Below, piece by piece: positions 1 to 51,873 of a DNA stretch of 64,000 nucleotides. Below the pieces are notes generated by a model. That model was not told the DNA's origin and did not search any database. It was given only the letters and a program-made list of their open reading frames with translations. Numbering within the stretch: position 1 is the stretch's first letter; each line of letters opens with the position of its first letter. Location: positions 1 to 64,000 of the forward strand of contig OZ237745.1 in NCBI GenBank assembly GCA_965178125.1, in the 5' to 3' direction. This stretch comes from Bilabrum cf. latius. Lineage: Eukaryota. The position numbers and the translations under genes were made by a program.

Positions 1-3000
1 CCACCCTTATGGTATCCGGCACTCCGCCCAGCGGGAGCGACCCTAGCCTGAACCGTCCGTCGTCATCCTAGCCGGTAAGACACAGCGCTAGCGGAAATGG
101 CACACCAGGGGTGTTCACCGGAATCGCCGTCCCATGCGGAAACTTCTCGTTCTTGCCTCCTCTCACCATGGCCGCAAATGCACCAATTGCCGCCAAGGGA
201 ACGTCCTCGTACGCCTTCTGGAGCGCGGAGACCATGTCCTCGAGCGTTACTCCCAGGTTTCTCATGGTCTCGTGCATCAGCGAGGCTGGAGCTCCCAGTA
301 AGGTGGCCGCTTTGGCCTGCTGCTCAATGCTCTGCGTCAGAGCCACGGTATTCTCGAGCTGCATGACCACCTCGGACGCAAGCCTCCCTGGGCTGATTCG
401 CACTACAGCAGTCAGTAGAGGGCCTGGTGCGTTGATCAGCACGGCAGACACCAAGGCCGGGTGCAGCATTCGACCAATGACCCGGCCGAGCTCCACGCAG
501 GGATCGTCACTGCCGCTCTGCAGGAACGACCTCAGATCCAGCAAGGCGCAGTCCTTGGGAGACTCAGTCCCAGCGGCGAATCCGACAACGTGGCGCCGGC
601 TGTCAGCCCGTGTTACCGCGAGTGGTCGCTACCCCGTGCAGGCAATGAGCGAGGCCGACTGCACACCCACCACGATGAGTGACGCTACGCCGTGCAGCAG
701 CTTCGGAAGCACCTCTGGAGAGCGGGCCTCCGGATCCGTGATCTCCCTCACCCCGCCCCTGGTCACAACCTGAAGCACCATAGCCAGAGTTGCCTGGGCT
801 ACGCGGCACTGGCCGTTCCAGTTGCGTGGATCCTTCTCCACCGTTCGCCGTCGGTCCGCAATGGTGCCATCCGCCACATGCCAGATGGCCTGCCGCAGTC
901 TGGCCTCGGGACGCGGAAGGACGGACTCCATGATGGACCGGGTCATGGCTTGCCCAGTCTGGGTGGGGGCCACCATCTGCGACACATCCAGCGCAAGCAT
1001 GCGCAGCTCCCCTGCGACTGCCTGCTGAACAGCTAAACCGTCCGACACCTGCTCAGCCGCCATAGCCTTTATCTCGATACTGGCCGCCGTAGCCATGGCC
1101 CCTCGGACCGCCTCCTCCAAGTCCCGCGTGACGGCATGCGCCACCTCCCGCTGCACCATGGCAGCAACTGTGTCAAAGAAGGGCGCTCGAACTGTCGACG
1201 TTCCTTCCGCCAGGGCATCCACGAGACTGGCGTGTCCGTCCTCAAGTCCCAGCGCCATTGCTAGTCCCATCAGAAGACCGGGCCCTGCCATGCTGAATTC
1301 GACGCGAAGCGATGCTCGAGCGTCACCTATAGCCTGCAACCTGCGACACGCGATCTCGGTGGCCTCGTCGTGCGCAACCCTTGCCATGGTGGCCGCAGCA
1401 GCCCGCCCCACCTTTGGAACCTGCTGCCTGCATCGCTCCAGCTCACCATACAGCCGAGACCCAAGCCGTTGGTGACTGTCGCCGCTGAGCCTCGTGGAGC
1501 GGAACGCCTGCTCGACGTACATCTGCACCCCGTGAGATACGCTCAGCATCGCGGGCAAGAGCTTACGAACAAACTCGTCGTCCCGCTCGCGGGTGGCCTG
1601 CGATACCAGCTCAGCCACGTGCTGAAAGTCATGCTTAGTCATGGCAGCTTGCGTATCGCCTCTGGCACGAGCCCTGAACTGCACACTGCCCAGAGATGGG
1701 CTCATGAGCAGGCAGTTCACGTTCTCTTCATCCACTTGCATTGGGAAGACGAACTAGCTCCCCACCTGTCCGAAGCCCGGTACGGAGGAGATGTCGGCCA
1801 CGGCATCACCCGCAAGTGCCATGGCATGACGCAGGCCCAGCACGCTCGGAAACGCAGCGTGCATGTCGCCGCCACCTGCCATGAAGCCCAGGTCCATGGA
1901 GAGCAACACGGGGTCCTGGCACTGGATCTCTGGTCGATGTTGCCCGAGCTCCGTCGCCATGCGGATGGCGTCCCTCCCGGCGGCAAGAGGGTCGACAAAC
2001 ACTACAGGGTGCCCGCCGTGGTCCGGAGGGTCCTCCTCAGGCTCACCAGCGGCCGGAGCCTGTCGCAGCATCAGGGATCGCATCACAGCAACCGCCGCCT
2101 GGTTCTGGCCCCCGACGACCAGGATTCGGTAGATCGAGCACGCCAGGACCCCTTGGATCTTCAGTCCGTCAGGATATCTCAGCCTGTGGGGCAGATGGCT
2201 GACCTGGGTGGGATGCAGGGCCGCGTCCTCGCTCAGAACCCGGAGCACTTCGCACAGGAAGTACCCGGGCCTGATGCGATGCCCGCCATCAGGCTCAGCA
2301 GTCCCACGCACGCCCATGTGACGGTCTCCAGGACTCAAAGTCTCGGTGTGGGTGCTTCCGCGAGAGACACCGACGGGCGAGTCGGTTGCTACAATCGCGT
2401 ACGATGCGGAGAGTCCCTGCGCCGTCGTGGCAGTCCTCGGGGTCGACTGCACCATGAACTCGGGCCCGCGGTACCCCTCCTTCTCTCTCACGTAGTTGAT
2501 GGCACCTGCGATGCCAATCAGGAGCGACTGCACGGCCTGGTCGAACGGCGTTCCAACGAGGCGCATTCCCTCCAGTCGCCGGATGTTCCAGCGCCTCGCG
2601 AGTGTGCGCAAGGAGGCCTGCTCTTCCTCAGACCCTGCGTGAGCAACGCCAAACACCCGAGCCACACCGCCCTCCGGTAGCACGACTCGCACCTCAGCCG
2701 CCCCCGCCAGGAGGACAGAGACCGAGACGTCGCCAGATCCGACCCCGCGCTGTTTGGGCATCATCGTGAGGTACTTGCGGAGCGTGGCACGTGCGGATTT
2801 CACGGCCCTGGCATTGCCTCGCACTGTGCCGGTGCTTCCCTCCAGGATCGCTTCAGCTTCCTCTAGCACCCCAACCTCCTCGCTGCTCTGGTGGAAGCGA
2901 CGAGCTGCACTTCGAACGTCCGATGTCAGGGATTGGACGGTCACGTGGTCCCCTGCTGGTGCAGGGAGAGCGTGATGGATGCGGTGCAGCCGCAGCGGCT

Positions 3001-5320
3001 CCGAATCCACACCCATGTTCTGGATCCCCATCGGTCCAAGGTACGCGACGTCGATGCGGGGTGAGTAGTACGCGCCGTGACTCCTCGGCGTGCCGGGATT
3101 GTCCCGCTCCTACGTGGGGATGTGCCGGTTGAAGACGATGCTGTAGCCGAGCCGGGGCCTGGATGAGCCGCTCGTGTCCACCTCGGTGCGCTGGTGCTGC
3201 TGCGTGGCCGACTGCACCCTGATCTGCCCCCCGTCCCTCTGCAGACCCCTGCGCCCGCAGAGGACCCCATCCTGCGTCGCCGAGTCGGCTCCAATCAGCA
3301 CGTCGATGAGGCCGTAGGCTTGGTCCAGCGGCTCGTCCAGCAGGAGCCGTGACACCGGCCCCCCAAGCGCCAGCATGAACGGGCTGGTCTGCACCTCCTG
3401 GGAGGCTCCGGCGCCGGATAGGATCCCGACCACCTCCATGGCGTCGACATCGGAGAGCTCAGAGCGGACCGCCACGGGGGCCGCCATGCCGTCTGGTGGG
3501 TTCCGCAGCACATCCGGGGCGGCCTCCTGCTCCTCTTCAGGCTCGCCTTCCAGCTCGGCATCCGCAGCTCCGAAAGCCTCCGCGGCAGGATCTCCACCAT
3601 CCGCTTCCTCGTCGCCACCTTGGTCTCCGTCCGAGTCCCACTGGCCTTCCCCACCCCACTCGCCTTCCCCAGCCTCATACCCGGCATCTTCGTCGCCCTC
3701 TGCATGCTCCTCCGCCCCAGCCGGCTGCGCCGCCGGCCCCTCCTCCATCTCGTCCTCGTCCTCGTCCTCGTACATGAACGCTGGAGGCTGCTCGGAGAGC
3801 CCGACCGCGTCAAAGACCGTCTCGTCCACGCGGTTGTACTCGATGTAGTGATCCCACTCCGTGCGGAGCGGAGAGAGCTTGTGGCTGTGCAGCCCGGGCT
3901 CCGCCAGCATCGGAGACGGCCAGAAGCTGACCGCCACCGAAGCCAGCTTGCTCCGAATGAAGGCAGCCCCTTCCTCGTTCAGGTCTTCGCTCTCCAGCAT
4001 CTTGGTGATGTCAGTCCAGCCAACGAGCTGCACGAGAAAGCGGCCGCGCCTCTGCGCGCGCTGCTCCACGCCGGCAGCATCAGTCTCGGCATGCAGGAGG
4101 CTGTCCACGACGACAACGGCGCGCCTCTGGTACGCCCACCAGCGCCGCATGCCTTGCATGGTCACCGTCTCCATCACTGGAGGTGCGAGCGCCCTCCACA
4201 CCTCGGGAGGCAGCTCCTGCCTGCCAACGCAGGTCAGCAGGCCCTGCAGGGCCTGCACCGCCTCGTCGTCCACCTCCCATATGTGGTAGGCCAGCATGGG
4301 GTGCTGCGCGAGGTCGTCTGTCGCCTCGTGCATGCCGAACCGGTACTCGGGCGGGAGGTTGACGGCCAGGGCCTCCTCTCCCTGCGCTCCCCCAGGGTCG
4401 CCGACGACCAGGTTCCATGCCTGCACGGGTGGTGCACCGACCTCCCCTCCGGCGTCTGGGCCTGCGCCACCGCCTTGGGCGCCGGCTGCCTCTGCACCGG
4501 CAGCGAACACGACTCCAGGGACGGGCAGCTCGGGCGCTCCTCCCTCTGCCCCGAAGAGCGGCTGCTGGCCCTGAGCATCCCAGACCATGGCCTGCCGAGC
4601 TGCCAGGGTGGCCGCGTGGGCGGCTTGGCGCCCGAGGAAGATGGCCTGGACCGCTTCTGGGGGCTCGTCGTTGCCCATCGCGTCCTCCCCTGCGCCGACC
4701 CCGGCCAGGACGGGCACCTCGGCGAGAGGCACGGGCCCAGGGACGAGTTGGTGCTGGGCAGCCTGGGCAGCTGGCTGCTGCTCGGCTGCTGGAGGGGCCG
4801 GACCGACGCCGGCTGGCCCACCTGCAGGCTCCTGCTGGGGCTCCGGGATCGGGAGGAAGGCGTCGGCCTCGCCAGCTGGCGGCTCGGGCTGCAGGCCTCC
4901 TGGGACCGGCAGGTTGGCACCCGGACCAGCCGGGTGCTGGGGCGGGGCGGCGGGCATCGCCTGCTGGCCAGCAGCAAGAGCTGCACCCGGTGGTGGTTGT
5001 TGGACGCCCTCTTGCTGCTGGAGCTGGTGCTCCGGAGCATGCTCGCCAATGGCTGGGACGGGGGCCGGCAGGCCTGCCGCATCGCCCCCCCCGGCTTCAT
5101 GACCGCCTGGCGCTGGCACCACCTGGGCCGGGATCTGGGCTTGCACCTCGCCGGCCGGCGGGCCAGGCAGGGCGTCACCTCCTGGTTGAAGTGGCCCTGG
5201 TACTCCGATGCGCACGCGATGCGGGTTCTGAGCGTAGCCCTTCGCGCGGCGGTCCAGGAAGGCCCGGAGGTAGTCCAAAGCCTTCATGTGCTTGGTGGCG
5301 TCGTACGTCGACTGCGCCAT
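1..5320 (-). CDS. Large unrecognised protein, >1,770 aa, running off the left edge; intronless; P/A/Q/G-rich and acidic N-terminal half
   Basis: Track ORFs 3110-5320, 1754-3031, 629-1741 and 68-544 share one frame and are separated only by TAG (3110, 1754, 629, 68). The frame stays open to position 1 with no TAA/TGA. No domain recognised. Confidence 0.75.
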
Positions 5321-5935
5321 GACCAGACTGCGGACAGAGATGCCACAAGGATATATAATATAGTTGGGATGTGATTAGTATGATGGTACGATGCGTTATT
5401 CCCTGGTGGCGCACTCGTCACGGCGGTGCCGCGCATCAGGTTCCGCACATGCTCCCGTCCACCAGAATTATTGTCGGAGTACTCCGCAATCAAGCAAAGT
5501 GAGCATTCGGCGCGCAGCCTACGCATCGCCGGGTAATTGTTTGCAGTATGTTATGATATTTGATAATATGCGCGAGATTAGTTCCAACGATTGCTAGCCG
5601 TCGCGCAATTGAGGAAAACGTCTGCAGCACGTTGTGGCAAGCGCATCGCGCATCGCACTCCCCAGGCATACCCCATCGATTTGACTCACGTTTGCTTCAG
5701 GTTTGTATGCACAATATGCTATAGTAGCTATATGCCAAGTATGCGCCTCTGCAATTAAATACAAGGAGCGCAAAATGAGTGATTCTAATTCAGCGCTGCT
5801 GGTTGGGTGAATGAGCAGATTTCGGGATGACGAGTACAAGTTGTGTGCACCTACGTGTCTCGCGCCTGTGATCCCTGCCGCGTTCAAACGCCTGTTTGTG
5901 GCTTAATCCGTGTTCCCTTGGCACCACAGAGTACT
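5321..5935. promoter_or_regulatory. Putative bidirectional promoter of the distal gene pair
   Basis: AT-richer gap between two divergent start codons; no specific motif identified. Confidence 0.35.
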
Positions 5936-6567
5936 ATGGCCGCCGCAAAGAGCTACAGTGTCAAGCACACCAGCAAGTCTCGCCCCGTCGTGGCCGCCCT
6001 GGCTTCAGGTGTCGCCACGTCCGCGGCCAAGCAGGTCCTGCTGATCTCCCTCGTGGGCCTCCACCAAGACTGTGGGCTGCTCTGCGGGTCTACGGAACAC
6101 TACGAAGGGACCAAAAAGGCGGGCATCAAGGCCTGTGTGGATGCCATCCTGGCGCTGGATGAGTTTGAGGTGCCTTTTGGTGTGCTCACGGCGCTGAGCA
6201 GCCACCTGTGCCCAGACGCATCAGGCAGCAGCTCCGACTGGCCAGGTTTCAGGAAGATGAAGCAGCTACTTACGGGCCTCCGCGACAGCGGCTATTCCGC
6301 CACGATTAACCCGTGGTTTAAGGCAGGCATGGATGGCCTGCAGAGACGCCACAAGGCCGTGCTCAAGTTCGTGTCCGACTACGGAGCTAAAAAAGGCTCT
6401 GTACGTGCGTGCGGAGGCATGGAGGCTGTGTTCATAGAGATGTTCGACATGGCAGTCAAGGACTCTGCCGTGGCTTCAGCAGGAGATCAAGGTGGTTCTT
6501 CGGGAGCCGCTGCTACCTCGATGAGTGGGGCACCCCGTGCTCGAAAAGACAAACGGAGTGCCATGGA

Positions 6568-6601
<34 letters not shown>

Positions 6602-7498
6602 GACGAGGACGAGGACGACCCTGACAACAATGTGAGGGGCTAGAGGGCCTACAAGGCCCGGAGAGCCCGGGGCGGGCCAGAGTCAGACGGCTCAGAGTCC
6701 AGCGACTCATTGACCGAGCGACTGAACAACGAGCTTCTAAGAGCCAAGCGGAAAGAGGAGGCCAAGAGAAAGGAAAAGGCAAAGGCCAAACTCAAGGCCA
6801 GGACCAAGGCCGCGGGCAAGTCGACGGGCAAGGTGCAGGGCAAGGTGAGGGCCAGGGATGCGCACCTGGCAGAACCGTAGAGCAAGAAGGCGGCTGACGC
6901 CGCGCCTCGGGCACAGAGGCAACCCAAGCGATCGACCGTCTTCCAAGCAGGCTATGGCAAGGGAGGTCGCCGCACTGTTGAACAAGAGAAGAGGGGAGCA
7001 AGTGGCGCAAGGAGTGGAGCAGCAGCATCATTGCCTCGCCAGGACACTGACGAGGATGAAGAGGAGATCGGTGGTCGGTACCGCGCAGAAGCAGCCGGAG
7101 ATCTGGACGAGGATGAGGCTCCAATGGGGCTTATGCAGCAGGACGAGGAGGATGAGGAGCAGCTGGACGAGGAAGAAGAGAACGAGGGCCACAACCAGCA
7201 GGACGACTCTGACCACAACGGTGGAATGGAGGACACCGGCTTCACCCCCTAGCAGCGGAACCTGATGAACCGCATCCTCGCTGCCTGCGATGACACCGCG
7301 TTGGACTGCAGCCAGACTGTCGAAGAGATGGTCGAGAACGTGCAAGAAGGCATTGAAAAGAGGGACCACGGGTTGGGCACGCTCGCAGACCTGATGACGG
7401 CCCTCGAGAAGACGGTGGAAGGAGATTTCAATGCGGAAGACGTCGACGCTGTGGAGGCGCTCCTGGCAGCTGTCGGAGCGGGATCCGATGATGGGTAA
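5936..7498 (+). CDS. Unrecognised ~520-aa protein with poly-Asp, Lys/Arg-rich and Glu/Asp-rich tracts
   Basis: ATG 5936; one frame with TAG at 6641, 6878 and 7250; ends TAA 7496-7498. A (GAC)n run encodes the poly-Asp. Divergent from the large ORF across an AT-richer gap. Confidence 0.7.
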
Positions 7499-7739
7499 GA
7501 AGCAGCTAGCGGGATGGCAATGGAGGTCAGTAGCAGCTAGACCAGCTTGTGAGAGGAGTTTGCCAATGTGCCGGCTAGTGACCTGTTAGGACGCAATAGT
7601 AGGAACCAACGGCCATTCTACCATAACAAGCCTAATATCAAGGCACTCCATCACGCAAGGGAATAAACACTTACACGTAAGTAACTGAAAAGAGCCATGT
7701 AATTGAATATCGGTCGTATCCCGCTGAAATCTCAACACC

Positions 7740-10700
7740 TTTGTACGATCCCCATGTAGCTTTGCTAGACCCCCATGTAGCATGCCATACCTCCATGTAG
7801 CCATGCACACACCCATACACATTTGCACGACCTCCATGTAGACATGCACACACCCCATGTAGCCATGCACACACCCCATGTAGCATGCCATTCCGCCCAT
7901 GTAGCCATGCACATACCCCCATACACATTTGCACGATCTACATGTAGCCATGCACACACCCAATGTAGCCATGCACACACCCCATGTAGCCATGCACACA
8001 CCCCATGTAGGATGCCATTCCGCCCATGTAGCCATGCACATACCCCCATACACATCTGCAAGATCCTCATGTAGCCATGCACACACCCCATGTAGCTTTG
8101 CACACACCCCATGTAAGTTTGCACGATCCCCATGTAGCATGCCATACCGCCCATGTAGCCATGCACATACCCCCATACACATTTGCACGATCTCCATGTA
8201 GCCATGCACACACCCAATGTAGCCATGCACACACCCAATGTAGCTTTGCACACACCCCATGTAAGTTTGCACGATCCCCATGTAGCATGCCATACCGCCC
8301 ATGTAGCCATGCACATACCCCCATACACATTTGCACGATCTACATGTAGCCATGCACACACCCAATGTAGCCATGCACACACCCCATGTAGCCATGCACA
8401 CACCCCATGTAGGATGCCATTCCGCCCATGTAGCCATGCACATACCCCCATACACATCTGCAAGATCCTCATGTAGCCATGCACACACCCCATGTAGCTT
8501 TGCACACACCCCATGTAAGTTTGCACGATCCCCATGTAGCATGCCATACCGCCCATGTAGCCATGCACATACCCCCATACACATTTGCACGATCTCCATG
8601 TAGCCATGCACACACCCCATGTAGCCATGCACACACCCATACACATTTGCACGACCTCCATGTAGACATGCACACACCCCATGTAGCCATGCACACACCC
8701 CATGTAGCATGCCATACCGCCCATGTAGCCATGCACATACCCCCATACACATTTGCACGATCTACATGTAGCCATGCACACACCCAATGTAGCCATGCAC
8801 ACACCCCATGTAGCCATGCACACACCCCATGTAGCATGCCATACCGCCCATGTAGCCATGCACATACCCCCATACACATTTGCACGATCTACATGTAGCC
8901 ATGCACACACCCAATGTAGCCATGCACACACCCCATGTAGCCATGCACACACCCCATGTAGGATGCCATTCCGCCCATGTAGCCATGCACATAGCCCCAT
9001 ACACATTTGCACGATCCTCATGTACCCATGCACACACCCCATGTAGCCATGCACACACCCCACACACATTTGCAAGATCTCCATGTAGCCATGCACAGAC
9101 CCCATGTAGCATGCCATACCTCCATTGTAGCCATGCACACACCCCATGTAGCCATGCACACACCCCATGTAGCCATGCACATACCCCCATACACATTTGC
9201 ACGATCTCCATGTAGCCATGCACACACACCATGTAGCCATGCACACACCCCATGTAGCATGACATACCGCCCATGTAGCCATGCACATACCCCCATACAC
9301 ATTTGCAAGATCTCCATGTAGCCATGCACACACACCATGTAGCATGCCATACCTCCATTGTAGCCATGCACACACCCCATGTAGCATGACATACCGCCCA
9401 TGTAGCCATACACACACCTCACATACACATTTGCACGATCTCCATGTAGCCATGCACACACACCATGTAGCCATGCACACACCCCATGTAGCATGACATA
9501 CCGCCCATGTAGCCATGCACATACCCCCATACACATTTGCAAGATCTCCATGTAGCCATGCACACACACCATGTAGCATGCCATACCTCCATTGTAGCCA
9601 TGCACACACCCCATGTAGCATGACATACCGCCCATGTAGCCATACACACACCTCACATACACATTTGCACGATCTCCATGTAGCCATGCACACACCCAAT
9701 GTAGCCATACACAGACACCATGTAGCATGCCATACCTCCATTGTAGCCATGCACACACCCCATGTAGCCATGCACACACCCCATGTAGCCATGCACATAC
9801 CCCCATACACATTTGCACGATCTCCATGTAGCCATGCACACACACCATGTAGCCATGCACACACCCCATGTAGCATGACATACCGCCCATGTAGCCATGC
9901 ACATACCCCCATACACATTTGCAAGATCTCCATGTAGCCATGCACACACACCATGTAGCATGCCATACCTCCATTGTAGCCATGCACACACCCCATGTAG
10001 CATGACATACCGCCCATGTAGCCATACACACACCTCACATACACATTTGCACGATCTCCATGTAGCGATGCACACACACCATGTAGCCATACACAGACCC
10101 CATGTAGCATGATATACCGCTCATGTAGCCATGCACATACCCCCATACACATTTGCAAGACCTCCATGTAGCCATGCACACACCCCATGTAGCATGCCAT
10201 ACCGCCCATGTAGCCATACACACACCTCACATACACATTTGCACGATCTCCATGTAGCCATGCACACACACCATGTAGCCATACACAGACCCCATGTAGC
10301 ATGATATACCGCTCATGTAGCCATGCACATACCCCCATACACATTTGCAAGACCTCCATGTAGACATGCACACACCCCATGTAGCATGCCATTCCGCTCA
10401 TGTAGCCATGCACATACCCCCATACACATTTGCAAGATCTCCATGTAGCCATGCACACACACCATGTAGCATGCCATACCTCCATTGTAGCCATGCACAC
10501 ACCCCATGTAGCATGACATACCGCCCATGTAGCCATGCACATACCCCCATACACATTTGCAAGATCTCCATGTAGCCATGCACACACACCATGTAGCATG
10601 CCATACCTCCATTGTAGCCATGCACACACCCCATGTAGCATGACATACCGCCCATGTAGCCATACACACACCTCACATACACATTTGCACGATCTCCATG

Positions 10701-11735
10701 TAGCGATGCACACACACCATGTAGCCATACACAGACCCCATGTAGCATGATATACCGCTCATGTAGCCATGCACATACCCCCATACACATTTGCAAGACC
10801 TCCATGTAGCCATGCACACACCCCATGTAGCATGCCATACCGCCCATGTAGCCATACACACACCTCACATACACATTTGCACGATCTCCATGTAGCCATG
10901 CACACACACCATGTAGCCATACACAGACCCCATGTAGCATGATATACCGCTCATGTAGCCATGCACATACCCCCATACACAATTGCAAGACCTCCATGTA
11001 GCCATGCACAGACCCCATGTAGCATGCCATTCCGCTCATGTAGCCATGCACATACCCCCATACACATTTGCAAGACCTCCATGTAGCCATGCACACACCC
11101 CATGTAGCATGACATACCTCCATTGTAGCCATGCACATACCCCCATACACATTTGCAAGATCTCCATGTAGCCATGCACAGACCCCATGTAGGATGCCAT
11201 TCCGCTCATGTAGCCATGCACATACCCCCATACACATTTGCAAGATCTCCATGTAGCCATGCACACACACCATGTAGCATGCCATACCTCCATTGTAGCC
11301 ATGCACACACCCCATGTAGCATGACATACCGCCCATGTAGCCATGCACATACCCCCATACACATTTACAAGATCTCCATGTAGCCATGCACACACCCCAT
11401 GTAGCATGCCATACCGCCCATGTAGCCATACACACTCCTCACATACACATTTGCACGATCTCCATGTAGCCATGCACACACCCCATGTAGCCATACACAG
11501 ACCCCATGTAGCATGCCATACCGCCCATGTAGCCATGCACATACCCCCATACACATTTGCACGATCTCCATGTAGCCATGCACACACCCAATGTAGCCAT
11601 ACACAGACCCCATGTAGCATGACATACCGCCCATGTAGGCATGCACATACCCCCATACACATTTGCAAGATCCTCATGTAGCCATGCACAAACTCAATGT
11701 TACCATGCTAAAACCCCAAGCAGCATGACATTCCG
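7740..11735. repeat. ~4-kb complex minisatellite built on a CATGTAGC core (~21- and ~43-bp subunits, higher-order periods)
   Basis: Recurring subunits CATGTAGCCATGCACACACCC, CATGTAGCATGCCATACCGCC and CATGTAGCCATGCACATACCCCCATACACATTTGCACGATCTC. Identical ORF-track translations recur at offsets of 127, 234, 402 and 638 bp. Confidence 0.95.
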
Positions 11736-13089
11736 CATCGTATAGCACGCACATCCTGTCTGTGGGCCGAGAAATCGGCGTTCTCCGTATAGCTAGGGTT
11801 ACGAAAGTGGCATATTTGGGTGTTTAATGGTCCATATCTCAGCCGATACTGGTCGTTGATGGCTGCGGCTTCGTCATAGCCGGGTCACGACTGCTTTCGC
11901 GTCGGTTACTTTTCGAACTCGGAGTCGAATTTCACACCCCTTCCTGCCCTCACTGTGCCCTCGGACTGTATCATGGAGGTGCTCCAGACCCACAGGCATG
12001 TGCTGCGACGCAGTTTGACCACCAGCATGCGTCACGGCGAATGGTAGAGTCAGAGACCTGAGATCTATGTGTTCCAGGATATGTGATCTCGGATTGCCGA
12101 AGTAGCCCGGCGTGGCATTTTTATAGAATGCATATTCAAACGCACCCATGCCGCATCTGGGTGCTGAGCTATCGCGGCTTGCGCAAATGTTTGGGCTAGC
12201 CCGAATCTTTGATCCATGTTTTCTCAGCCCGGAAATATGTCCAATGCCTTACACCTTCCACATGATGTCTACGCACCTCTGTTCCCTGGAATTACTCGGA
12301 GTTTCATAATTTTCAACCAAGTCTCACTCTTACCGGTCTGTGACATGCACCCTATTCCTAGCCTTGCCCCTTTGTGGGGGAGTTGCAAATTCGATTTGCT
12401 GATTCATGAGTTTGTATTATTGCACTGTATCATTTACGGTACTTGGTTTTCTGACATGATTAAAAAATCCACCCAATTTTCGGGGCCAAGCTCCTCTCGC
12501 CGGTATATGACATACACCCTATTCCTAGCCTTGCCCCTCTGTGGGGGAGTTGCAAATTCGATTTGCTGATTCATGAGTTTGCATTATTGCACTGTATCAT
12601 TTACGGTACTTGGTTTTCTGACATGATTAAAAAATCCACCCAATTTTCGGGGCCAAGCTCCTCTCGCCGGTATATGACATACACCCTATTCCTAGCCTTG
12701 CCCCTCTGTGGGGGAGTTGCAAATTCGATTTGCTGATTCATGAGTTTGTATTATTGCACTGTATCATTTACGGTACTTGGTTTTCTGACATTAATGAAGA
12801 TCGCCAGTCACCCAGTCACTGTGGGCGTGGCGCCGACCAGATGAGCACTTACTTGTATTGCTCGATTGCTCGAGAGCTGTGTGCCAGCCATTCTCCAAAC
12901 TTCGCACACATGACACATGATGATGACTCAAAGTGCGAATGAACGGCTGAAATCAAGAAATCTCATTTACAGCTAATGAACGCCCCTTAGGAAAACCTCT
13001 TACCTAACCCGAACCCATGTACGTATGCAAACCCAACCATGTAGGTGTGCAAACCCCATACTTGCAATGCTTGATGTAATAGAATCACG
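11733..13089. repeat. Block B, copy 1, containing ~2.7 copies of a 167-bp tandem unit (~12345-12790)
   Basis: Near-identical to 15144-16500 (offset 3411). The unit starting CACCCTATTCCTAGCCTTGCCCC recurs every 167 bp. Confidence 0.92.
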
Positions 13090-13966
13090 GGGAATATTTG
13101 CCCCCAGTTGTGGTCCCCGGCCGTCCCGATGCAGTTTGAACGGTCTTCATATCTCATCTGGTTGCCGAGATCGCCGCGCGCATTTTTTCTGCCTGACAAT
13201 CTTCGTCCAGCCATATTGTCGCCGCGCGGTATAAACGGAACCTGGGGAACATTTGCCCCCAGTTGTGGTCCCAGGCCGTCCCAATGCAGTATGAACGGTC
13301 TTCATATCTCATCTGGTTGCCGAGATCGCCGCGCGCATTTTCTCTGCCTGAAAATCTTCATCCCCCCATACTGTCGCCGCGCGGTCAAAACGGAACCTGG
13401 GGAACATTTGCCCCCTGTTGTGGTCCCAGGCCGTCCCAATGCAGTTTGAACGGTCTTCATATCTCATCTGGTTGCCGAGATCGCCGCGCGCATTTTTTCT
13501 GCCTGAAAATCTTCGTCCCACCATATTGTCGCCGCGCGGTCAAAATGGAACCTGGGGAACATTTGCCCCCAGTTGTGGTCCCCGGCCGTCCCAATGCAGT
13601 ATGAACGGTCTTCATATCTCATCTGGTTGCCGAGATCGCCGCGCGCATTTTTTCTGCCTGAAAATCTTCGTCCCCCCATACTGTCGCCGCGCGGTCAAAA
13701 CGGAACCTGGGGAACATTTGCCCCCTGTTGTGGTCCCAGGCCGTCCCGATGCAGTATGAACGGTCTTCATATCTCATCTGGTTGCCGAGATCGTCGCGCG
13801 CATTTTTTCTGCATGACAATCTTCGTCCCACCATATTATCGCCGCGCGGTCAAAACGGAACCTGGGGAACATTTGCCCCCTGTTGTGGTCCCAGGCCGTC
13901 CCGATGCAGTTTGAACGGTCTTCATATCTCATCTGGTTGCCGAGATCGCCGCGCGCATTTTTTCTG
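13090..13966. repeat. 155-bp tandem satellite, ~5.7 copies
   Basis: Unit GGGGAACATTTGCCCCCAGTTGTGGTCCCAGG... with 155-bp period (track ORFs at 13108, 13263, 13418, 13573, 13728). Confidence 0.95.
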
Positions 13967-15196
13967 CGTATAGCTAGGGTTACGAAAGTGGCATATTTGG
14001 GTGTTTAATGGTCCATATCTCAGCCGATACTGGTCGTTGATGGCTGCGGCTTCGTCATAGCCGGGTCACGACTGCTTTCGCGTCGGCTACTTTTCGAACT
14101 CGGAGTCGAATTTCACACCCCTTCCTGCCCTCACTGTGCCCTCGGACTGTATCATGGAGGTGCTCCAGACCCACAGGCATGTGCTGCGACGCAGTTTGAC
14201 CACCAGCATGCATCACGGCGAATGGTAGAGCCGAACCAGTTTACCTGCTCCTATCTGATTCCGGATTGCAAGCGAACATGTGCCCGCGTCGTCTCGACTA
14301 GTTCCGACTCCGGCCTATCTAACCCGCATCGTATAGCACGCACATCCTGTCTGTGGGCCGAGAAATCGGCGTTCTCCGTATAGCTAGGGTTACGAAAGTG
14401 GCATATTTGGGTGTTTAATGGTCCATATCTCAGCCGATACTGGTCGTTGATGGCTGCGGCTTCGTCATAGCCGGGTCACGACTGCTTTCGCGTCGGTTAC
14501 TTTTCGAACTCGGAGTCGAATTTCACACCCCTTCCTGCCCTCACTGTGCCCTCGGACTGTATCATGGAGGTGCTCCAGACCCACAGGCATGTGCTGCGAC
14601 GCAGTTTGGCCACCAGCATGCATCACGGCGAATGGTAGAGCCGAACCAGTTTACCTGCTCCTATCTGATTCCGGATTGCAAGCGAACATGTGCCCGCGTC
14701 GTCTCGACTAGTTCCGACTCCGGCCTATCTAACCCGCATCGTATAGCACGCACATCCTGTCTGTGGGCCGAGAAATCGGCGTTCTCCGTATAGCTAGGGT
14801 TACGAAAGTGGCATATTTGGGTGTTTAATGGTCCATATCTCAGCCGATACTGGTCGTTGATGGCTGCGGCTTCGTCATAGCCGGGTCACGACTGCTTTCG
14901 CGTCGATTACTTTTCGAACTCGGAGTCGAATTTCACACCCCTTCCTGCCCTCACTGTGCCCTCGGACTGTATCATGGAGGTGCTCCAGACCCACAGGCAT
15001 GTGCTGCGACGCAGTTTGACCACCAGCATGCATCACGGCGAATGGTAGAGCCGAACCAGTTTACCTGCTCCTATCTGATTCCGGATTGCAAGCGAACATG
15101 TGCCCGCGTCGTCTCGACTAGTTCTGACTCCGGCCTATCTAACCCGCATCGTATAGCACGCACATCCTGTCTGTGGGCCGAGAAATCGGCGTTCTC
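13967..15196. repeat. 410-bp tandem repeat, 3 copies, sharing sequence with the start of block B
   Basis: CGTATAGCTAGGGTTACGAAAG at 13967, 14377, 14787 and 15197, and also at 11786. Confidence 0.93.
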
Positions 15197-16500
15197 CGTA
15201 TAGCTAGGGTTACGAAAGTGGCATATTTGGGTGTTTAATGGTCCATATCTCAGCCGATACTGGTCGTTGATGGCTGCGGCTTCGTCATAGCCGGGTCACG
15301 ACTGCTTTCGCGTCGGTTACTTTTCGAACTCGGAGTCGAATTTCACACCCCTTCCTGCCCTCACTGTGCCCTCGGACTGTATCATGGAGGTGCTCCAGAC
15401 CCACAGGCATGTGCTGCGACGCAGTTTGACCACCAGCATGCATCACGGCGAATGGTAGAGTCAGAGCCATGAAATCCATGTGTTCCAGGATATGTGATCT
15501 CGGATTGCCGAAGTAGCCCGGCGTGGCATTTTTATAGAATGCATATTCAAACGCACTCATGCCGCATCTGGTTGCTGAGCTATCGGGACTTGCGCAAATG
15601 TTTGGGCTAGCCCGAATCTTTGATCCATGTTTTCTCAGCCCGGAAATATGTCCAATGCCTTACACCTTCCACATGATGTCTACGCACCTCTGTTCCCTGG
15701 AATTACTCGGAGTTTCATAATTTTCAACCAAGTCTCACTCTTACCGGTCTGTGACATGCACCCTATTCCTAGCCTTGCCCCTTTGTGGGGGAGTTGCAAA
15801 TTCGATTTGCTGATTCATGAGTTTGCATTATTGCACTGTATCATTTACGGTACTTGGTTTTCTGACATGATTAAAAAATCCACCCAATTTTCGGGGCCAA
15901 CCTCCTCTCGCCGGTATATGACATACACCCTATTCCTAGCCTTGCCCCTTTGTGGGGGAGTTGCAAATTTGATTTGCTGATTCATGAGTTTGCATTATTG
16001 CACTGTATCATTTACGGTACTTGGTTTTCTGACATGATTAAAAAATCCACCCAATTTTCGGGGCCAACCTCCTCTCGCCGGTATATGACATACACCCTAT
16101 TCCTAGCCTTGCCCCTTTGTGGGGGAGTTGCAAATTCGATTTGCTGATTCATGAGTTTGCATTATTGCACTGTATCATTTACGGTACTTGGTTTTCTGAC
16201 ATTAATGAAGATCGCCAGTCACCCAGTCACTGTGGGCGTGGCGCCGACCAGATGAGCACTTACTTGTATTGCTCGATTGCTCGAGAGCTGTGTGCCAGCC
16301 ATTCTCCAAACTTCGCACACATGACACATGATGATGACTCAAAGTGCGAATGAACGGCTGAAATCAAGAAATCTCATTTACAGCTAATGAACGCCCCTAA
16401 GGAAAACCTCTTACCTAACCCGAACCCATGTACGTATGCAAACCCAACCATGTAGGTGTGCAAACCCCATACTTGCAATGCTTGATGTAATAGAATCACG
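15144..16500. repeat. Block B, copy 2, with 167-bp tandem units
   Basis: Matches 11733-13089 with only scattered substitutions. Confidence 0.92.
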
Positions 16501-17996
16501 GGGAACATTTGCCCCCAGTTGTGGTCCCAGGCCGTCCCGATGCAGTTTGAACGGTCTTCATATCTCATCTGGTTGCCGAGATCGCCGCGCGCATTTTTTC
16601 TGCATGACAATCTTCGTCCCACCATACTGTCGCCGCGCGGTATAAACGGAACCTGGGGAACATTTGCCCCCTGTTGTGGTCCCAGGCCGTCCCGATGCAG
16701 TTTGAACGGTCTTCATATCTCCTGTGGTTGCCGAGATCGCCGCGCGCATTTTTTCTGCCTGAAAATCTTCGTCCCCCCATACTGTCGCCGCGCGGTCAAA
16801 ACGGAATCTGGGGAACATTTGCCCCACATTGTACCCCCAGGCCGTCCCGATGCAGTATGAACGGTCTTCATATCTCATCTGGTTGCCGAGATCGTCGCGC
16901 GCATTTTTTCTGCATGACAATCTTCGTCCAGCCATATTGTCGCCGCGCGGAATAAACGGAACCTGGGGAACATTTGCCCCCAGTTGTGGTCCCAGGCCGT
17001 CCCGATGCAGTTTGAACGGTCTTCATATCTCCTGTGGTTGCCGAGATCGCCGCGCGCATTTTTTCTGCATGACAATCTTCGTCCAGCCATATTGTCGCCG
17101 CGCGGTATAAACGGAACCTGGGGAACATTTGCCCCCAGTTGTGGTCCCAGGCCGTCCCGATGCAGTTTGAACGGTCTTCATATCTCATCTGGTTGCCGAG
17201 ATCGCCGCGCGCATTTTTTCTGCCTGAAAATCTTCGTCCCCCCATACTGTCGCCGCGCGGTCAAAACGGAATCTGGGGAACATTTGCCCCACATTGTACC
17301 CCCAGGCCGTCCCGATGCAGTATGAACGGTCTTCATATCTCATCTGGTTGCCGAGATCGTCGCGCGCATTTTTTCTGCATGACAATCTTCGTCCAGCCAT
17401 ATTGTCGCCGCGCGGTATAAACGGAACCTGGGGAACATTTGCCCCCAGTTGTGGTCCCAGGCCGTCCCGATGCAGTTTGAACGGTCTTCATATCTCATCT
17501 GGTTGCCGAGATCGCCGCGCGCATTTTTTCTGCATGACAATCTTCGTCCAGCCATATTGTCGCCGCGCGGTATAAACGGAACCTGGGGAACATTTGCCCC
17601 CAGTTGTGGTCCCAGGCCGTCCCGATGCAGTTTGAACGGTCTTCATATCTCATCTGGTTGCCGAGATCGTCGCGCGCATTTTTTCTGCATGACAATCTTC
17701 GTCCAGCCATATTGTCGCCGCGCGGTATAAACGGAACCTGGGGAACATTTGCCTAACATTGTACCCCCAGGCCGTCCCGATGCAGTTTGAACGGTCTTCA
17801 TATCTCATCTGGTTGCCGAGATCGTTGCGCGCATTTTTTCTGCATGACAATCTTCGTCCAGCCATATTGTCGCCGCGCGGTCAAAACGGAACCTGGGGAA
17901 CATTTGCCCCACATTGTACCCCCAGGCCGTCCCGATGCAGTTTGAACGGTCCTCATATCTCATCTGGTTGCCGAGATCGTCGCGCGCATTTTTTCG
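16501..17996. repeat. 155-bp tandem satellite, ~9.7 copies
   Basis: Same unit as 13090-13966 with a 155-bp period. Confidence 0.95.
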
Positions 17997-18056
17997 ACAA
18001 AAAGTGAAGATGAAAATTTTTTTTCCCCGACCCTGTCCCTGACTTTATATTAGATA

Positions 18057-18412
18057 CCCTAACCCTAACCCTAACCCTAACCCTAACCCTAACCCTAACC
18101 CTAACCCTAACCCTAACCCTAACCCTAACCCTAACCCTAACCCTAACCCTAACCCTAACCCTAACCCTAACCCTAACCCTAACCCTAACCCTAACCCTAA
18201 CCCTAACCCTAACCCTAACCCTAACCCTAACCCTAACCCTAACCCTAACCCTAACCCTAACCCTAACCCTAACCCTAACCCTAACCCTAACCCTAACCCT
18301 AACCCTAACCCTAACCCTAACCCTAACCCTAACCCTAACCCTAACCCTAACCCTAACCCTAACCCTAACCCTAACCCTAACCCTAACCCTAACCCTAACC
18401 CTAACCCTAACC

Positions 18413-18447
<35 letters not shown>
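18057..18447 (+). repeat. Telomeric tract (CCCTAA)n, ~65 units, internal to the window
   Basis: Perfect CCCTAA array with a single CCCTAAA variant near the right end. C-rich on the + strand, which is left-end orientation. Confidence 0.98.
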
Positions 18448-18451
18448 AAAA

Positions 18452-18737
18452 ATGGGCCGGTGACTGGGTGGTGCCGCGGATGGACCAGGAGGCAGGTAGT
18501 GGGCAGATGGGCCGGTGACTGGGTGGTGCCGCGGATGGACCAGGAGGCAGGTAGTGGGCAGATGGGCCGGTGACTGGGTGGTGCCGCGGATGGACCAGGA
18601 GGCAGGTAGTGGGCAGGTGGGCCGGTGACTGGGTGGTGCCGCGGATGGACCAGGAGGCAGGTAGTGGGCAGATGGGCCAGTGACTGGGTGGTGCCGCGGA
18701 TGGACCAGGAGGCAGGTAGTGGGCAGATGGGCCAGTG
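18452..18737. repeat. Subtelomeric 55-bp G-rich tandem repeat, ~5.2 copies
   Basis: ATGGGCCGGTGACTGGGTGGTGCCGCGGATGGACCAGGAGGCAGGTAGTGGGCAG starting at 18452, 18507, 18562, 18617 and 18672, with a partial copy at 18727. Confidence 0.93.
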
Positions 18738-19235
18738 CCAGCGGCGTGATGAGCTTTATGGTTCTTTGTGAGCACTCGGGGTGGAGACAAATTCACTAAC
18801 GTAATCTGGGATACTCCGTCCTCGAGCTTCACCCCCTTTCCAATGCCATGACCCGCCGTGTCTTCTCAGTCCGTCTCCACGCAGATGCATGCCGGCAATG
18901 TGGCCAAGTAGCTATATTCTTCCCGCCCTGCCCAATAGTACGCATGGCATCCTAAATAGACCCACCCTAGGCCGCCGACACCACCACTTTCCTCGGTGTC
19001 CCATGCATCGTGCCGCACGCCGACGCCCCGCTCACCTCCCAGCCCACGAATGGCAGGTGATGATCAACGCGTTCGCATTTCCTAGTAGCGCCCTGCCCTG
19101 GGGACTGATGGGGCCCAGGCGCGCGCGGCTGGCGGCCCCTGCCCCAGCCAAGAACCCCCCTGCCAGCCCAAGCACCCCTCTCGGCCCGCATGATGCAGCG
19201 TCGGTGCCGCCAGCCCATGCAAGGAAGAAGGGAAG

Positions 19236-20189
19236 TTACAGCTCCTCTAGATTCCGTGTGGACCCTCTATCCCCCTCCTATTGGCCCCCATCCGCGGCAT
19301 CTGCCGCGGATGGTCCCGCCTGCCGCACCTGCCCATCTTTCTACTCCCCCGAATGCTCAAGGTGCTGCTGCTTGACGGCGTGCCCCAGCACGTGAGGCCG
19401 CAGTAAAAAGGGTACCCCGGGCATGCTCATTCGCCGCACGTTTGCCCTCCACTGCTCCCTGTTCATGATGGTGTGGCCTGTCTCCCGCGTGAGGGTGCAC
19501 CCGTCCCCCAGCAGCGTCCATAGGCCCAGCGCCTGCACCCCCCGCTGCACTGCCTGCAGCCACTCGCCCTCGCCCTCGCCCTCTTTCGCCGCCAGGACAT
19601 GCTCCAGGAACACAAAAATGCCACCCGGCCGGAGCACCCGGTGTATTTCATTCAGCGCCGCATCCACGCTGGGCACGGAGCACAGCACCAGCGTGGACAC
19701 GACGACATCCACGGACGCATCTTGAACGGAATCGAGGGCCTGCGCGCCCTCTGCTATCAGCATCACGTCGGTCCCTCTCGCCCGCAGCGAGTGGTTCGCA
19801 ATCTGGTCCTCAAGGTCATCATGCATCCACTCGTTGGGCTCAGCCAGTATGAGCTTGCGCGGCGGCGGGAGCAGGGCGTATACAGGGAGGTTGGCTCCAA
19901 GCCCAGGACCGATCTCAAGCACCGTGGCGCCCCCCAATTGGTCACTGTGAGGACTAAGCAGGTTCTGACGTATATCGAGAGATGCCCTCGCGCTTGGAGG
20001 GCCGATGAGCTGCCAGAACTTGTAAAAGGACAGCTGCTGGGCGCCGGGAATCCAAGCAATCGAAGCCACGGCGAGGACTAGGGCAATTGTTATTGCCCCG
20101 AGGAGTCCCGCGCCGTAGCAGGCGCAGCAACGTAAAGAAAAGCAGCGCTTCGAGGGTGTATCCTGCGTTCGGCTCCCAGATTGCGGCAT
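19236..20189 (-). CDS. Class I SAM-dependent methyltransferase, METTL7-like, with N-terminal hydrophobic anchor
   Basis: Motifs VLEIGPGLGAN, SVDVVVSTLVLCSV and EIHRVLRPGG..FLEHV. Reading through TAG at 19341 and 19278 ends the protein ...NLEEL at TAA 19236. Confidence 0.85.
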
Positions 20190-32236: not shown

Positions 32237-34800
32237 TCACGCACGCATGGGGGTGAGCTGTGCCATGGTTGCCTCTGCTTGCTCCGGCAGGACAGTCCTA
32301 TTCCGGTCGTTCATAGGCACGTGTGAAGTCCCCGATATCTTGTCGGCTGGGTGTCTCTGCAACGAGGAGTTTACCTCGCCATCTGCCCTACCCAGACCAC
32401 CGCCGCCGCTAAGTACCGTGCTGCGGAAGCCCCCGTCTCCATGCATGACCCTGCGCCCCGCCCGTCCCATGGGCGTCCCAGGAGCCCCCAGGCCGTGCAA
32501 GGTGCCACCCCTCTCCTCGATAGCAGGAACGGGCGGCTGTCTCAGCGCCACGGAGGCTTGCTCCATCCACCGATCCAGCGCGTCCCTGGACACCGGGCCC
32601 ACCTGCTTGCGGCTGGCGAGGAGACCGGAGACCCCTTGGAGCGAGGACTGGCTGCCCACCCTCGATGAGGACTCGCTGCCTCCCAGTCCACTGGTGGCCA
32701 AGGGCTGGGTGTCTGGCGGAGGCAGCTGTCCCGTGCTCTCCAGCTGCTGCACCATGGAGAGCGTCTATGCGAGAGCGGCCGGGTTCTCTGAAAGGTCAGG
32801 GAGCGATGGCAAGTTTGGCAACGAGCCGCTCATCACAGACGCCATGCTTTCCTGCAGGCTGGTGCTCTGATCGACTGGCAGCTCGCTCTCGTCCATCCAC
32901 TCGTGCCCTTCCTCGCCCCCCACTGCACTCGTGAGAGATCCCTGGCCCAGCTAGCGCTCTTCAAGATTCGCACGAGCCGATTTCCTCGAGTCTCGGCCGA
33001 CATCCGCCTGTTCCAGTCCAGCGGCTGGCCCCCTGCGGTACATCTGCAGCGCACTAGATATGATGGTCTCGTCGACACTTGAGTCTGGAGGCCCCTCAGG
33101 GAGTGCGTATCGCAGCACAGAGACGGTCTTGCTGCGGACATGGGGCTGCAGCAGCAACACAGCAGCGCGTTCAATCGCACGAGAAGCAGATGTTTCCGCC
33201 ATGCCGACCAGCTGCTGCGCATAGCTGGCAGATACGGAGTCGCTGCCCCTCGCTCGCCCCTCGCTGGGCTCAGAGTTTTCGTCTTCTGCAGGCTGGTCTT
33301 CGCCGAGATCTCCATCTAAGCCAGCGTCCGCTACGCTCACTGGTGACATTGCCCTGGGAGCATCGCTCAGGTGGCTCGCAGCTTCATCGTGGTCCATGCT
33401 GTTGCTTCGATCCTTGTCCAGTCGCGAGTCGTGGAGCTAGCTCTGGCGCTCGCCGCTGAGGAATGGACGATGGCCTACAGCATGAGAGGAGCCTCGCAGC
33501 CTTTGCTTTGAGCTGTACCCTGTTTTGTCCTTTCGGGGCGGAGCAAGGGCCTTGGAAACGTGCTTGAAGACCGCCATTTGCTAGCTGTCCGGTCGAGTCC
33601 GCAGCAACAGCCTGTGCAGCATTTCAGTCGCTTGCCCCAGCTGCAGCTTCGAATTTCTGATCTCCTTGTGTGCAAGCCTGCACATGACATCATTGTGCAT
33701 CAATTCGGTCTGTCCAGCAGCAGCTGCTTGCTGTGCTGCGCGGGTGCGCCTGCGTTTCTCTTGCACCGTTGCGTCGTACAGCTGCAGCGCCTCTCGGATT
33801 TCCTACTCTACGTTCTTTTGCTCGTCTCCACACCGCTGAATACACCTTGCTTGTTCTAAGCGATCGTCCTCCGAGGCCTGGAACATGCGGATGAGCTCAT
33901 CGTGGGACCTTACGTTGGCCCGGACCGCCATGCGATCCAAGATGTCAGACAGCTGCTCCCGCTGCTGGCGCAGGCTCTCGCTGGTCTCAGCGCACGTGTT
34001 CTTCTCACCTTCTAGGTTTTTGATGTCATCTTGCAGTTGGTGGATACGCTGCAGCTGCTCCTTGTACTCTTTGGCCTGCTCTGCATGCTCTGCTTGCATA
34101 GTCTTGCCTGCCTTCTCTCGCTGCTGCTTGGTGCCCACTCTCGCCAACCGCTGTAGCCGCCTCGCCCGCTTTAAGCGAGCTTCCAGCTTCATTAATGTAG
34201 CTTCATCTTCCATCATCGCCTTGAGTTCTGAAGCCTCGAACACGTCTCGCTAATCTTCCAGCCGGAGAGTGGCAGCTGTTGCGTTTTCACTTTTCGTAAG
34301 CTCGCGTTGCAGCTCTGCCTGTGCCGCCTGCAAGTCGGCACGAGTCTGGAGAAACAAAGACCTGGTACTCTAGTGTTTTGTTCTCTGTTCGTTGATTTCA
34401 TCGACTAGTGCCTGGTTCTCCTTGTCAAGGCCGTCCTCAAGCCTGCGGATGCGTTCGAGCTCCACTTCAGACAGATAAATTCTCTTTCTGTCTCTCTAAA
34501 CCAGGTCAAGATCTGCTCGAATCCCACCAAATTGGGCTTTATCCTTCTTGTACTTTCCTAGTTCATCTTTCAGGCGAGAAAGAGTGTCGCAGAGCTGTTG
34601 CAGAGAGTCGTTGAGCCTGGCTTGTTCATCCAGCAGCCCCTCGTGCAGCATAGAGGTTCTCTGGAAATGTCGGCGCAACTGCTTATCGCGCTTACCCGAA
34701 GTTTGCTGCATTGCTTTGATTCGCTGCTTTATATTTTGGAGCTATCTGGCAGGAAGGAGACGAGCGTGTCTCCTATGAACGGAACTTCTAACCTCGTCAT
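32237..34800 (-). CDS. Long coiled-coil protein, possibly outer dynein arm docking complex (ODA-DC2/CCDC114)-like; probable 47-nt intron 34746-34792
   Basis: Five track ORFs in one frame joined by 9 TAGs; heptad-rich. HDELIRMFQASEDDR weakly resembles the DC2 motif. Ends TGA 32237. Confidence 0.6.
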
Positions 34801-34887
34801 GCGCGGCGCCAGCCCCGACTCCGCCAACGACCACTTTGCAAGGTTGGTACCGGACTTGCTCTGAGCTCCGTTCCTGGTATCACACTT

Positions 34888-51800: not shown

Positions 51801-51873
51801 GACTTCCCATATCGGGATCTTGCCCAGGTGGTTGCACATCGCTATACCCAGACATATCGCTCTAGTAGGCCAT
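48838..51873 (-). CDS. PH + two filamin/Ig-like repeats + coiled-coil + degenerate EF-hand-like protein, ~1,010 aa
   Basis: PH-like VLRKE..RRWEER..DVWV*AINMV; filamin-like YLGNGSF..YTP..GEY..IQGSPFLVTV and DLGDGTYEVKY; C-terminal SLQQFARMMKDF..FIEAMSRMA. 7 TAGs; TGA. Confidence 0.8.

Follow-up and report, generated by a model that had tools for sequence, protein, structure and literature searches.

The first 18,056 nucleotides of the window, the 64-kb stretch at the left end of contig C11 of the Bilabrum cf. latius assembly (48.6 Mb, 111 contigs), are a single copy of a repeated unit that almost certainly has the architecture of a selfish, telomere-resident stacked element with a fixed inner end and a free distal end. 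The unit carries two divergent open reading frames (ORFs), ORF-A on the minus strand and ORF-B on the plus strand, followed by satellites and by a constant end reading ...TTAGATA|(CCCTAA)n. What the initial annotation, made from this stretch alone, could not see is that hundreds of such copies exist, stacked and truncated on their distal side, and that they belong to four families. The element is genuine, recurs many times, is subject to selection and is not explained by any known enzyme.

The initial annotation had suggested looking for the same junction at other chromosome ends, and it is found there. The final 34 nt ahead of the tract occur at 232 places in the genome (99 forward, 133 reverse), against none for a reversed control. 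Among the matches listed, 99 of 100 are no more than 32 kb from a contig end; those at left ends are in forward and those at right ends in reverse orientation, the lengths of C16 and C19 being bounded from size rank in this tally. The sole internal copy among them is on C14, beside an N gap, where a left-end-type stack of family 1, tract, family 2, tract and subtelomeric repeat occupies about 699,600-704,300 (L058:3600-8300); it may represent either a fusion or two chromosomes joined in scaffolding. We examined 52 contig ends, most of them picked for having matches; 47 carry a unit by the motif, and C7L carries one by ORF-B and the 155-bp array. When six ends were picked blind, two had a unit and four had plain telomere and then the usual subtelomeric repeat. 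C21L, C27L and C29L are among the ends with plain telomere.

From the tip inward, a telomere tract is followed by a truncated unit with its fixed end and then by another tract, a pattern that repeats head-to-tail and with one polarity; further tracts distal to a unit, which the initial annotation had proposed to seek, are thus present in other copies. One of four exact fixed ends stands before 160 of the 176 non-terminal tracts in the stretches surveyed (123/18/6/13), the window's family-1 end before 123 of them, and 16 tracts have other junctions; the insertion phase within the telomere repeat is fixed and the orientation single at these 160. The distal side of the units is entirely different. 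Family-1 units lying between tracts (n = 106) range from 41 to 14,395 bp and have 56 different distal starts. The longest copies hold both genes and satellites in 12-14.4 kb between tracts, and one copy on C8 exceeds 31.7 kb solely through satellite expansion. Thirteen cut sites mapped on one copy showed no common motif, most being followed by stuttered telomere repeats containing C or A runs. Of 101 distinct tracts, 98 are perfect over 36 nt on the side of the fixed end and 60 on the opposite side; the window's own tract is perfect at the element edge and irregular at the inner edge. Because the cuts are arbitrary, the repeats stuttered and the distal tract edges imperfect, we infer that the distal cuts were healed de novo by telomerase. 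The genome encodes a TERT with an RNA-binding domain and reverse transcriptase (RT) motifs, its frame open over the 1131 codons read. This frame has a long (Ala-Gly)n insert ahead of the RNA-binding domain (L021:370-660). At C14R (flipped end 4304-4405, L078), a 102-bp telomere tract lies inside the ORF-A/ORF-B spacer with no fixed end before it.

Whole multi-unit arrays were copied as DNA, not only in tandem but also from one chromosome to another. At C36R, a 12.2-kb block comprising four units and their tracts is present three times, and C12R and C38R have four consecutive units in common, with the same cut sites and with tracts of 630/636, 277/277 and 1350/1355 bp. The window's subfamily, characterised by its 21-bp satellite and its 410/167/155 module, recurs at C8L (100% over 7750 bp) and at C33R, joined via the same fixed end to tracts with different inner flanks. 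The element was also found outside the assembly: contigs of study P2 cover window positions 1-994 and 1072-4987, studies P3 and P4 contribute short pieces, and a piece of family-2 protein is present on a contig outside the assembly.

Both genes appear to be maintained. ORF-A is whole, at 2328 aa, in four copies (C23L, C25L, C25R and C36R) out of the 22 that have a start; it consists of a Pro/Ala/Gln-rich N-terminus, an acidic stretch and a long globular remainder. A protein search with it returned 14 matches, 95-100% identical and all near contig ends. ORF-B, in which a conserved N-terminal domain of ~170 aa is followed by acidic and basic low-complexity tracts, is open for 509-526 aa in all 26 copies whose start is intact. 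The ratio of nonsynonymous to synonymous substitution rates (dN/dS) was 0.17-0.37 for ORF-A (6 pairs), 0.26-0.51 among nine ORF-B variants, and 0.18 at a dS of 1.39 between the family-4 subtypes, values that indicate purifying selection on the tested ORFs.

The four families have the telomere-stacking habit in common and are connected by proteins that are homologous, if very divergent. Families 2 and 3 end in ...TGACCCCC(A/T)GATA (34 junctions, 19 forward and 15 reverse) and family 4 in ...GATGGTACTGTAA; the junction of families 1-3 keeps CCGA.CCT...TGAC...GATA, from which the family-4 end differs. In family 2 two genes likewise point apart, and the large ORF aligns with ORF-A at 24% over 649 aa (E 2e-17). 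ORF-B has homologues in the small ORFs of families 2 and 3 (hhalign 87%, E 3.8e-6), the ORF-B domains being 17-19% identical between families. In family 4 the two genes are in mirror image with respect to the fixed end, so that the large ORF (2082-2142 aa) is on the C strand, against the G strand in families 1-2. It has a block of ~100 aa in common with ORF-A at moderate support (hhalign 67%, E 5.4e-5; E 0.06 for ORF-A against the family-4 ORF by BLAST alone), and the large ORF of family 2 aligns with that of family 4 at 29% over 112 aa (E 9e-5). This block, approximately aa 852-960 of ORF-A, is a candidate functional core, in which a 4-sequence alignment showed no obvious catalytic set. All 8 copies of the family-4 ORF returned by a protein search are near contig ends, and its long copies begin with subtelomeric-type 53/54-bp repeats. 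Three candidate likenesses were discarded: the family-4 small ORF as a homologue of ORF-B (hhalign probability 0.1%), an internal weak match to the family-2 ORF (C12:187858, E 0.003) that lies in an unrelated long frame, and a resemblance between the core and the S5 fold of gyrase B, which was unsupported.

No relative of these proteins was found outside the element. The initial annotation had described the genes of the block as unrecognised, and Pfam indeed gave no match to ORF-A or ORF-B and none below E 0.07 to the ORFs of families 2-4. An exhaustive search of 1.84 billion representatives, made with aa 620-1819 of ORF-A only, returned five matches, all near-identical pieces; ORF-B was left out of the large-collection protein searches. 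Word-indexed protein searches, saturated at ~8000 candidates, returned at least six matches, all of them 97-100% pieces of one 12.8-kb contig, to which the five of the exhaustive search also belong; among proteins of 1280-4074 aa the candidates included none, and the core profile gave at least two matches. Two structure models had a mean predicted local distance difference test score of 35, and a fold search with these low-confidence models reached a best Z of 4.2, with none at 5 or above.

The block shares the coding habits of its host. The ORF-A frame, running from 5320 to 1 (1773 codons, 4 TAG), and the ORF-B frame (5936-7498) are open only when TAG is read as sense, as the initial annotation had advised. 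To the right of the tract, host frames are likewise long and unbroken with TAG in-frame, for example 40789-48663 (2624 aa, 16 TAG); frames 48838-51906 and 32237-34834 also read TAG as sense. The frames thus point to a nuclear code in which TAG is sense and TAA and TGA end frames. Our best guess is that TAG encodes Gln: between families 4a and 4b, CAA/CAG, the commonest partner, stands opposite TAG in 15 of 41 differing positions, against only 3 of 20 among the ORF-B variants. Separation of UAG from UAA is described as rare among nuclear codes in the part of PMC5304391 available. The GC content is 0.61-0.66 in block ORFs and 0.58-0.67 in seven host ORFs, and third-position GC is 0.71-0.75 and 0.61-0.83, respectively. 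The initial annotation had taken absence of introns as a mark of the block; it is not distinctive, because host genes are also long unbroken TAG-reading frames. Combined, the code and the missing introns do not flag the block as foreign.

In its behaviour the element acts like MoTeR, Terminon, HeT-A and Y' elements, yet the RT, hammerhead, oligo(A) and helicase that define them were not found. The reading that we favour, tentatively and at a little under an even chance, is that a unit is added by copying outward from its fixed end, primed by the telomere 3' end and using a DNA template. The fixed end always abuts (CCCTAA)n, so that the element continues the telomere 3' end on the G strand. The telomere 3' overhang would pair with the tract beside a fixed end, either in another array or in an excised circle, and copying would proceed outward, past the satellites and then across ORF-B and ORF-A, in the manner of break-induced replication (BIR). 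It would halt, or the end would break, at arbitrary places, and host telomerase would be the agent that produced the healed junctions seen. Each fresh tract would become the landing site of the next unit, giving polarised head-to-tail stacks, and whole multi-unit arrays are duplicated as DNA, as described above. Both proteins may favour the copying, ORF-A by recognising the terminal motif or the satellites and ORF-B as a charged binder of nucleic acid or chromatin. A DNA template is preferred because DNA copying alone has left direct traces, no RT was found and gene orientation is free; the change of strand of the large ORF between families 1-2 and family 4 counts against an RNA route.

Array growth by BIR of the same kind is described, in the available parts of the sources, for MoTeR arrays (10.1101/845669) and for Y' of Saccharomyces cerevisiae (PMC13177704). 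As presented there, Y' is also gene-bearing, has internal tandem repeats, is in tandem at some ends with telomere tracts between, and spreads by recombination or BIR (PMC13177704); the triplication at C36R and the C12R/C38R arrays correspond to such spread. Y' differs in encoding a helicase and in forming discrete length classes that were not found cut by telomere addition (PMC13177704). Here Pfam found no superfamily-2 helicase, and 106 units have 56 distal starts, most units being telomere-capped fragments.

Several points weigh against copying from DNA as the origin of new units. Firstly, recombination alone would give no reason for a junction motif kept across families of <20% protein identity, which looks like the signal of an enzyme, and polarity with short-biased distal truncation is equally expected from reverse transcription. 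Secondly, BIR in MoTeR arrays works atop retrotransposition, in the available text of 10.1101/845669; copied arrays therefore do not reveal how a first unit was added. Y', the known case of spread by recombination, was not found cut by telomere addition in the available part of its description (PMC13177704). Finally, no helicase or recombinase motif was found in ORF-A or ORF-B, and the assembled copies stop short of the true distal end.

An RNA-templated telomere retroelement of Terminon, HeT-A or MoTeR type is the foremost alternative, and we consider it unlikely although worth serious weight. A C-strand RNA ending in the fixed end and CCCUAA would anneal to the G overhang; RT would be supplied in trans (by a long interspersed nuclear element (LINE) or by TERT), or ORF-A would itself hold an RT that escaped recognition, or a distal gene missing from the assembly would encode it, and ORF-B would serve as a HeT-A-type Gag. 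Polarity, head-to-tail stacking and telomere-capped truncation match what is described of Terminons (PMC6431247) and MoTeR (10.1101/845669), and HeT-A, as presented in the available part of PMC5537684, has no pol and borrows its RT. ORF-B runs in sense toward the fixed end and is followed by a long 3' non-coding arm, the conserved end is exact to the nucleotide, many units are short, and the host genome has 88 RVT_1 matches as well as TERT. None of these 88 is, by position, inside any terminal array; the nearest (C37:10593) is 9 kb inside a telomere in its own 1172-aa frame. Among five further RT loci inspected none showed telomere repeats; four of them look, by their motifs, like LINE-type frames. 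Two RT frames, L040:224-3742 (C37) and L105:628-3000 (C4), resemble CRE/SLACS-type site-specific LINEs in their motifs, and are possible donors in trans. Rfam gave no match up to E 5 in 5300-18800, the hammerhead being thus unfound; terminal folds were no better than shuffles (z -1.1 to +1.4 for 16 termini, both strands); and there is no poly(A) or oligo(A) at the junction, which reads GATA|CCCTAA or TGTAA|CCCTAA. The family-4 ends of both subtypes (L062:9261-9392, L064:105-236) form the same long-range stem, closing just before the repeats, with z of -0.6 to -1.1. An RNA template would also have to reach up to 30 kb, 10-24 kb of it satellite, and would cross ORF-A in the antisense direction; in family 4 the gene pair is mirrored.

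The available accounts of these retroelements sharpen the comparison. Like the units here, MoTeR1/2 of Magnaporthe are embedded in TTAGGG tracts with one polarity and form tandem arrays with interstitial tracts; their distal truncations are telomere-healed, their arrays are extended by BIR and copied between ends, and the elements receive secondary insertions (10.1101/845669). MoTeR1 encodes an RT and a site-specific endonuclease (10.1101/845669), neither of which was detected here, where there are instead two divergent orphan genes and as much as 24 kb of satellite, and where the interstitial tracts often measure hundreds of bases. The fixed repeat phase and single orientation of MoTeR, SART and TRAS are present, and their RT and endonuclease were not found. 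Terminons (Athena) likewise are long multi-ORF units in several families, with a fixed end bearing reverse-complement telomere repeats, most copies telomere-truncated and arrays head-to-tail (PMC6431247). They differ in their Penelope-like element RT, hammerhead and accessory enzymes (PMC6431247), all undetected in the assembled units, and in that two families here have their large gene antisense to the supposed RNA. HeT-A of Drosophila also lacks an RT and stacks head-to-tail in polarised terminal arrays; it has a conserved ORF and, toward the centromere, a long non-coding arm (PMC5537684). Its poly(A) junction, Gag and RT-bearing array partner (PMC5537684) have no counterpart seen here, and the present host keeps telomerase and telomere repeats between units.

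Somewhat more doubtful is an undescribed class of eukaryotic mobile element with a chemistry of its own, which would attach to telomere 3' ends by its own machinery: a protein of 2,100-2,300 aa, from a family lacking any detectable relative, would read the terminal motif (...TGAC...GATA|CCCTAA) and polymerise or join DNA onto the G overhang. Such a protein would be neither a known RT nor a known transposase, and the class would by now have diverged into four families that exist beside telomerase.

A new class of DNA transposon is improbable. ORF-A would nick the conserved terminus, peel or copy the G strand and join the 5' end of the element to the telomere 3'-OH, in a one-ended, rolling-circle-like manner; the want of a terminator would account for the variable distal ends. 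This proposal best explains the exact end motif kept in families 1-3, and the large ORFs are homologous in families 1, 2 and 4, under purifying selection and free in orientation, as a DNA element would allow. The distal arm gives a divided answer. At C25L, a 22-bp satellite distal to ORF-A is inverted relative to the proximal arm and 90% identical to it, whereas at C23L, C25R and C36R the distal sequence is an 839-bp repeat similar to the window's arm in direct, not inverted, orientation; C23L and C25R stop at the contig edge within this repeat, and C36R is telomere-capped there. The family-4 end is different, the core block showed no catalytic set in its four-sequence alignment, and the unit ORFs gave no match to HUH Rep, PIF1, DDE, tyrosine-recombinase or helicase profiles. 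Helitron_like_N has only two matches in the genome, both internal and neither in an array.

That the units are not selfish but a family of subtelomeric host genes, which serve the cell and are carried by ordinary telomere recombination, is very unlikely. Host-like GC and TAG use, purifying selection and the subtelomeric-type repeats opening the long family-4 copies would fit such a family. However, the genes lie distal to telomere tracts, most copies are cut (ORF-A being whole in 4 of 22), protein searches with ORF-A and the family-4 ORF found copies near contig ends only (14/14 and 8/8), and four of the six blind-picked ends have no unit at all.

The initial annotation had proposed a large mobile or viral element; the mobile, telomere-associated part of this proposal stands, and the giant (gene-rich) or viral part does not, as the unit has two genes only. 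A telomere-integrated virus of which only an end is retained is a most improbable reading. Human herpesvirus 6 is likewise placed at telomeric repeats, and the large orphan, intron-free genes next to terminal repeats and the unseen distal end would suit such an origin. A telomere-flanked integrant is known in the mirusvirus LE-Chr15 of Aurantiochytrium, an orphan-rich block outside or between telomeric or subtelomeric repeats (10.1101/2023.06.15.545109). That is a single 269-kb insertion with 152 proteins, among them capsid, terminase and PolB, as given in the available text (10.1101/2023.06.15.545109), against hundreds of stacked two-gene units here. The initial annotation saw no RT, integrase, Rep or capsid gene in the window, and profile searches of the block's ORFs gave no RT, Rep, PolB, capsid or terminase match; hallmark genes of mirusviruses, herpesviruses and Polintons (capsid, terminase, PolB) were not found in the ORFs by sequence with general profiles, mirusvirus-specific ones not being included. 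PHROGs matched 0 of 4 proteins, two profiles had no match among PDB sequences, phage genomes gave no match, 0 of 34 viral-contig candidates were confirmed as relatives, and the terminal 26-mer occurred in no metagenome contig. The composition is host-like, and the sole clearly virus-like piece in the arrays is a separate AT-rich Polinton-like insert.

An assembly mis-join at the tract, for which foreign-looking DNA beyond tracts at several ends and the 16 other junctions, some into bacterial-like genes, might be cited, has a negligible chance given the exact family end with its 232 matches, the same subfamily and end at C8L and C33R with different inner flanks and the study P2 contigs, and could at most exchange which copy C11 bears. 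The block is thus neither a giant virus nor a mis-join. Of the outcomes that the initial annotation held to speak against an element, a mis-join or a block running into single-copy intron-bearing genes, neither appears to apply on the sequence.

The layout of the window is given in the table. The central observation of the initial annotation, a telomere tract with ~18 kb of ORFs and satellites on its distal side, holds, and tandem arrays of 21, 167, 155 and 410 bp occupy most of 7750-17995. No tract in the inverted, TTAGGG orientation appears in the window's repeat listing, in agreement with that annotation. The two modules have their 167-bp arrays at 12317-12791 and 15744-16202 and their 155-bp arrays at 13089-13967 and 16500-17995; C8L has five copies of the module against the window's two, and the 155-bp repeat is polarised at many chromosome ends. 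The spacer between the divergent genes may be a bidirectional promoter. The tract is a former chromosome end and the landing place of the unit; repeats of 43-77 bp like the 55-bp repeat on its inner side adjoin the innermost tract at other ends, whether elements are present or not.

Table. Features of the left part of the window (positions in the 64-kb stretch).
Feature	Position	Strand	Remarks
ORF-A	1..5320	-	first 1773 of 2328 aa; contig start cuts the remainder
ORF-A candidate core block (~aa 852-960)	2441..2767	-	~100 aa common to large ORFs of families 2 and 4
Spacer between divergent start codons	5321..5935		~89% identical in other subfamilies
ORF-B	5936..7498	+	520 aa, 3 TAG
21-bp satellite, higher-order periods	7750..11708		subfamily-specific; array also at C8L and C33R
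Composite module, two copies	11733..17995		410-bp unit(s), spacer, 167-bp array, spacer, 155-bp array
Fixed end of the unit	17996..18056	+	finishes ...CCCTGACTTTATATTAGATA, CCCTAA directly after
Interstitial telomere tract (CCCTAA)n	18057..18447	+	65 hexamer copies; left-end orientation
55-bp subtelomeric repeat	18452..18737		inside of the tract
First ordinary host gene, methyltransferase domain	19236..20189	-	Pfam Methyltransf_11, E 5.5e-14; chromosome body starts

Other DNA was encountered at the chromosome ends. At C28:15107-20990 (L067:1107-6990), an AT-rich Polinton-like cassette with PolB_2, a DUF5906 helicase and an rve integrase with a chromodomain sits just upstream of a family-3 ORF-B; it reads TAG as sense and is itself cut within the polymerase and capped by telomere repeats. 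Bacterial-looking genes lie beyond tracts or arrays at C20R, C15L, C40L, C14L, C30L and C82 (L043/L044, L049, L051, L065, L101, L090-L091), in the same polarity as the elements and with no conserved junction. We presume these to include photolyase, Obg GTPase, an ECF sigma factor and outer-membrane proteins, and such ends are probably chimeric contig ends.

No description of the element was found in the literature searched, most subscription papers and bioRxiv supplements lying beyond the reach of the search. To our knowledge, every described builder of telomere stacks encodes an RT or a helicase or relies on a known partner for its RT. The present four related families stack at telomeres in a host with intact telomerase, and no outside relative of their proteins was found (ORF-A aa 620-1819 against the 1.84 billion representatives). 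The arrays display telomerase healing at dozens of sites, and chromosome ends in this host differ by tens of kilobases. If ORF-A mobilises the units, it would be a new kind of telomere-acting enzyme; if it does not, the element would clearly exemplify, in nature, genes that stay intact although nothing but telomere recombination spreads them.

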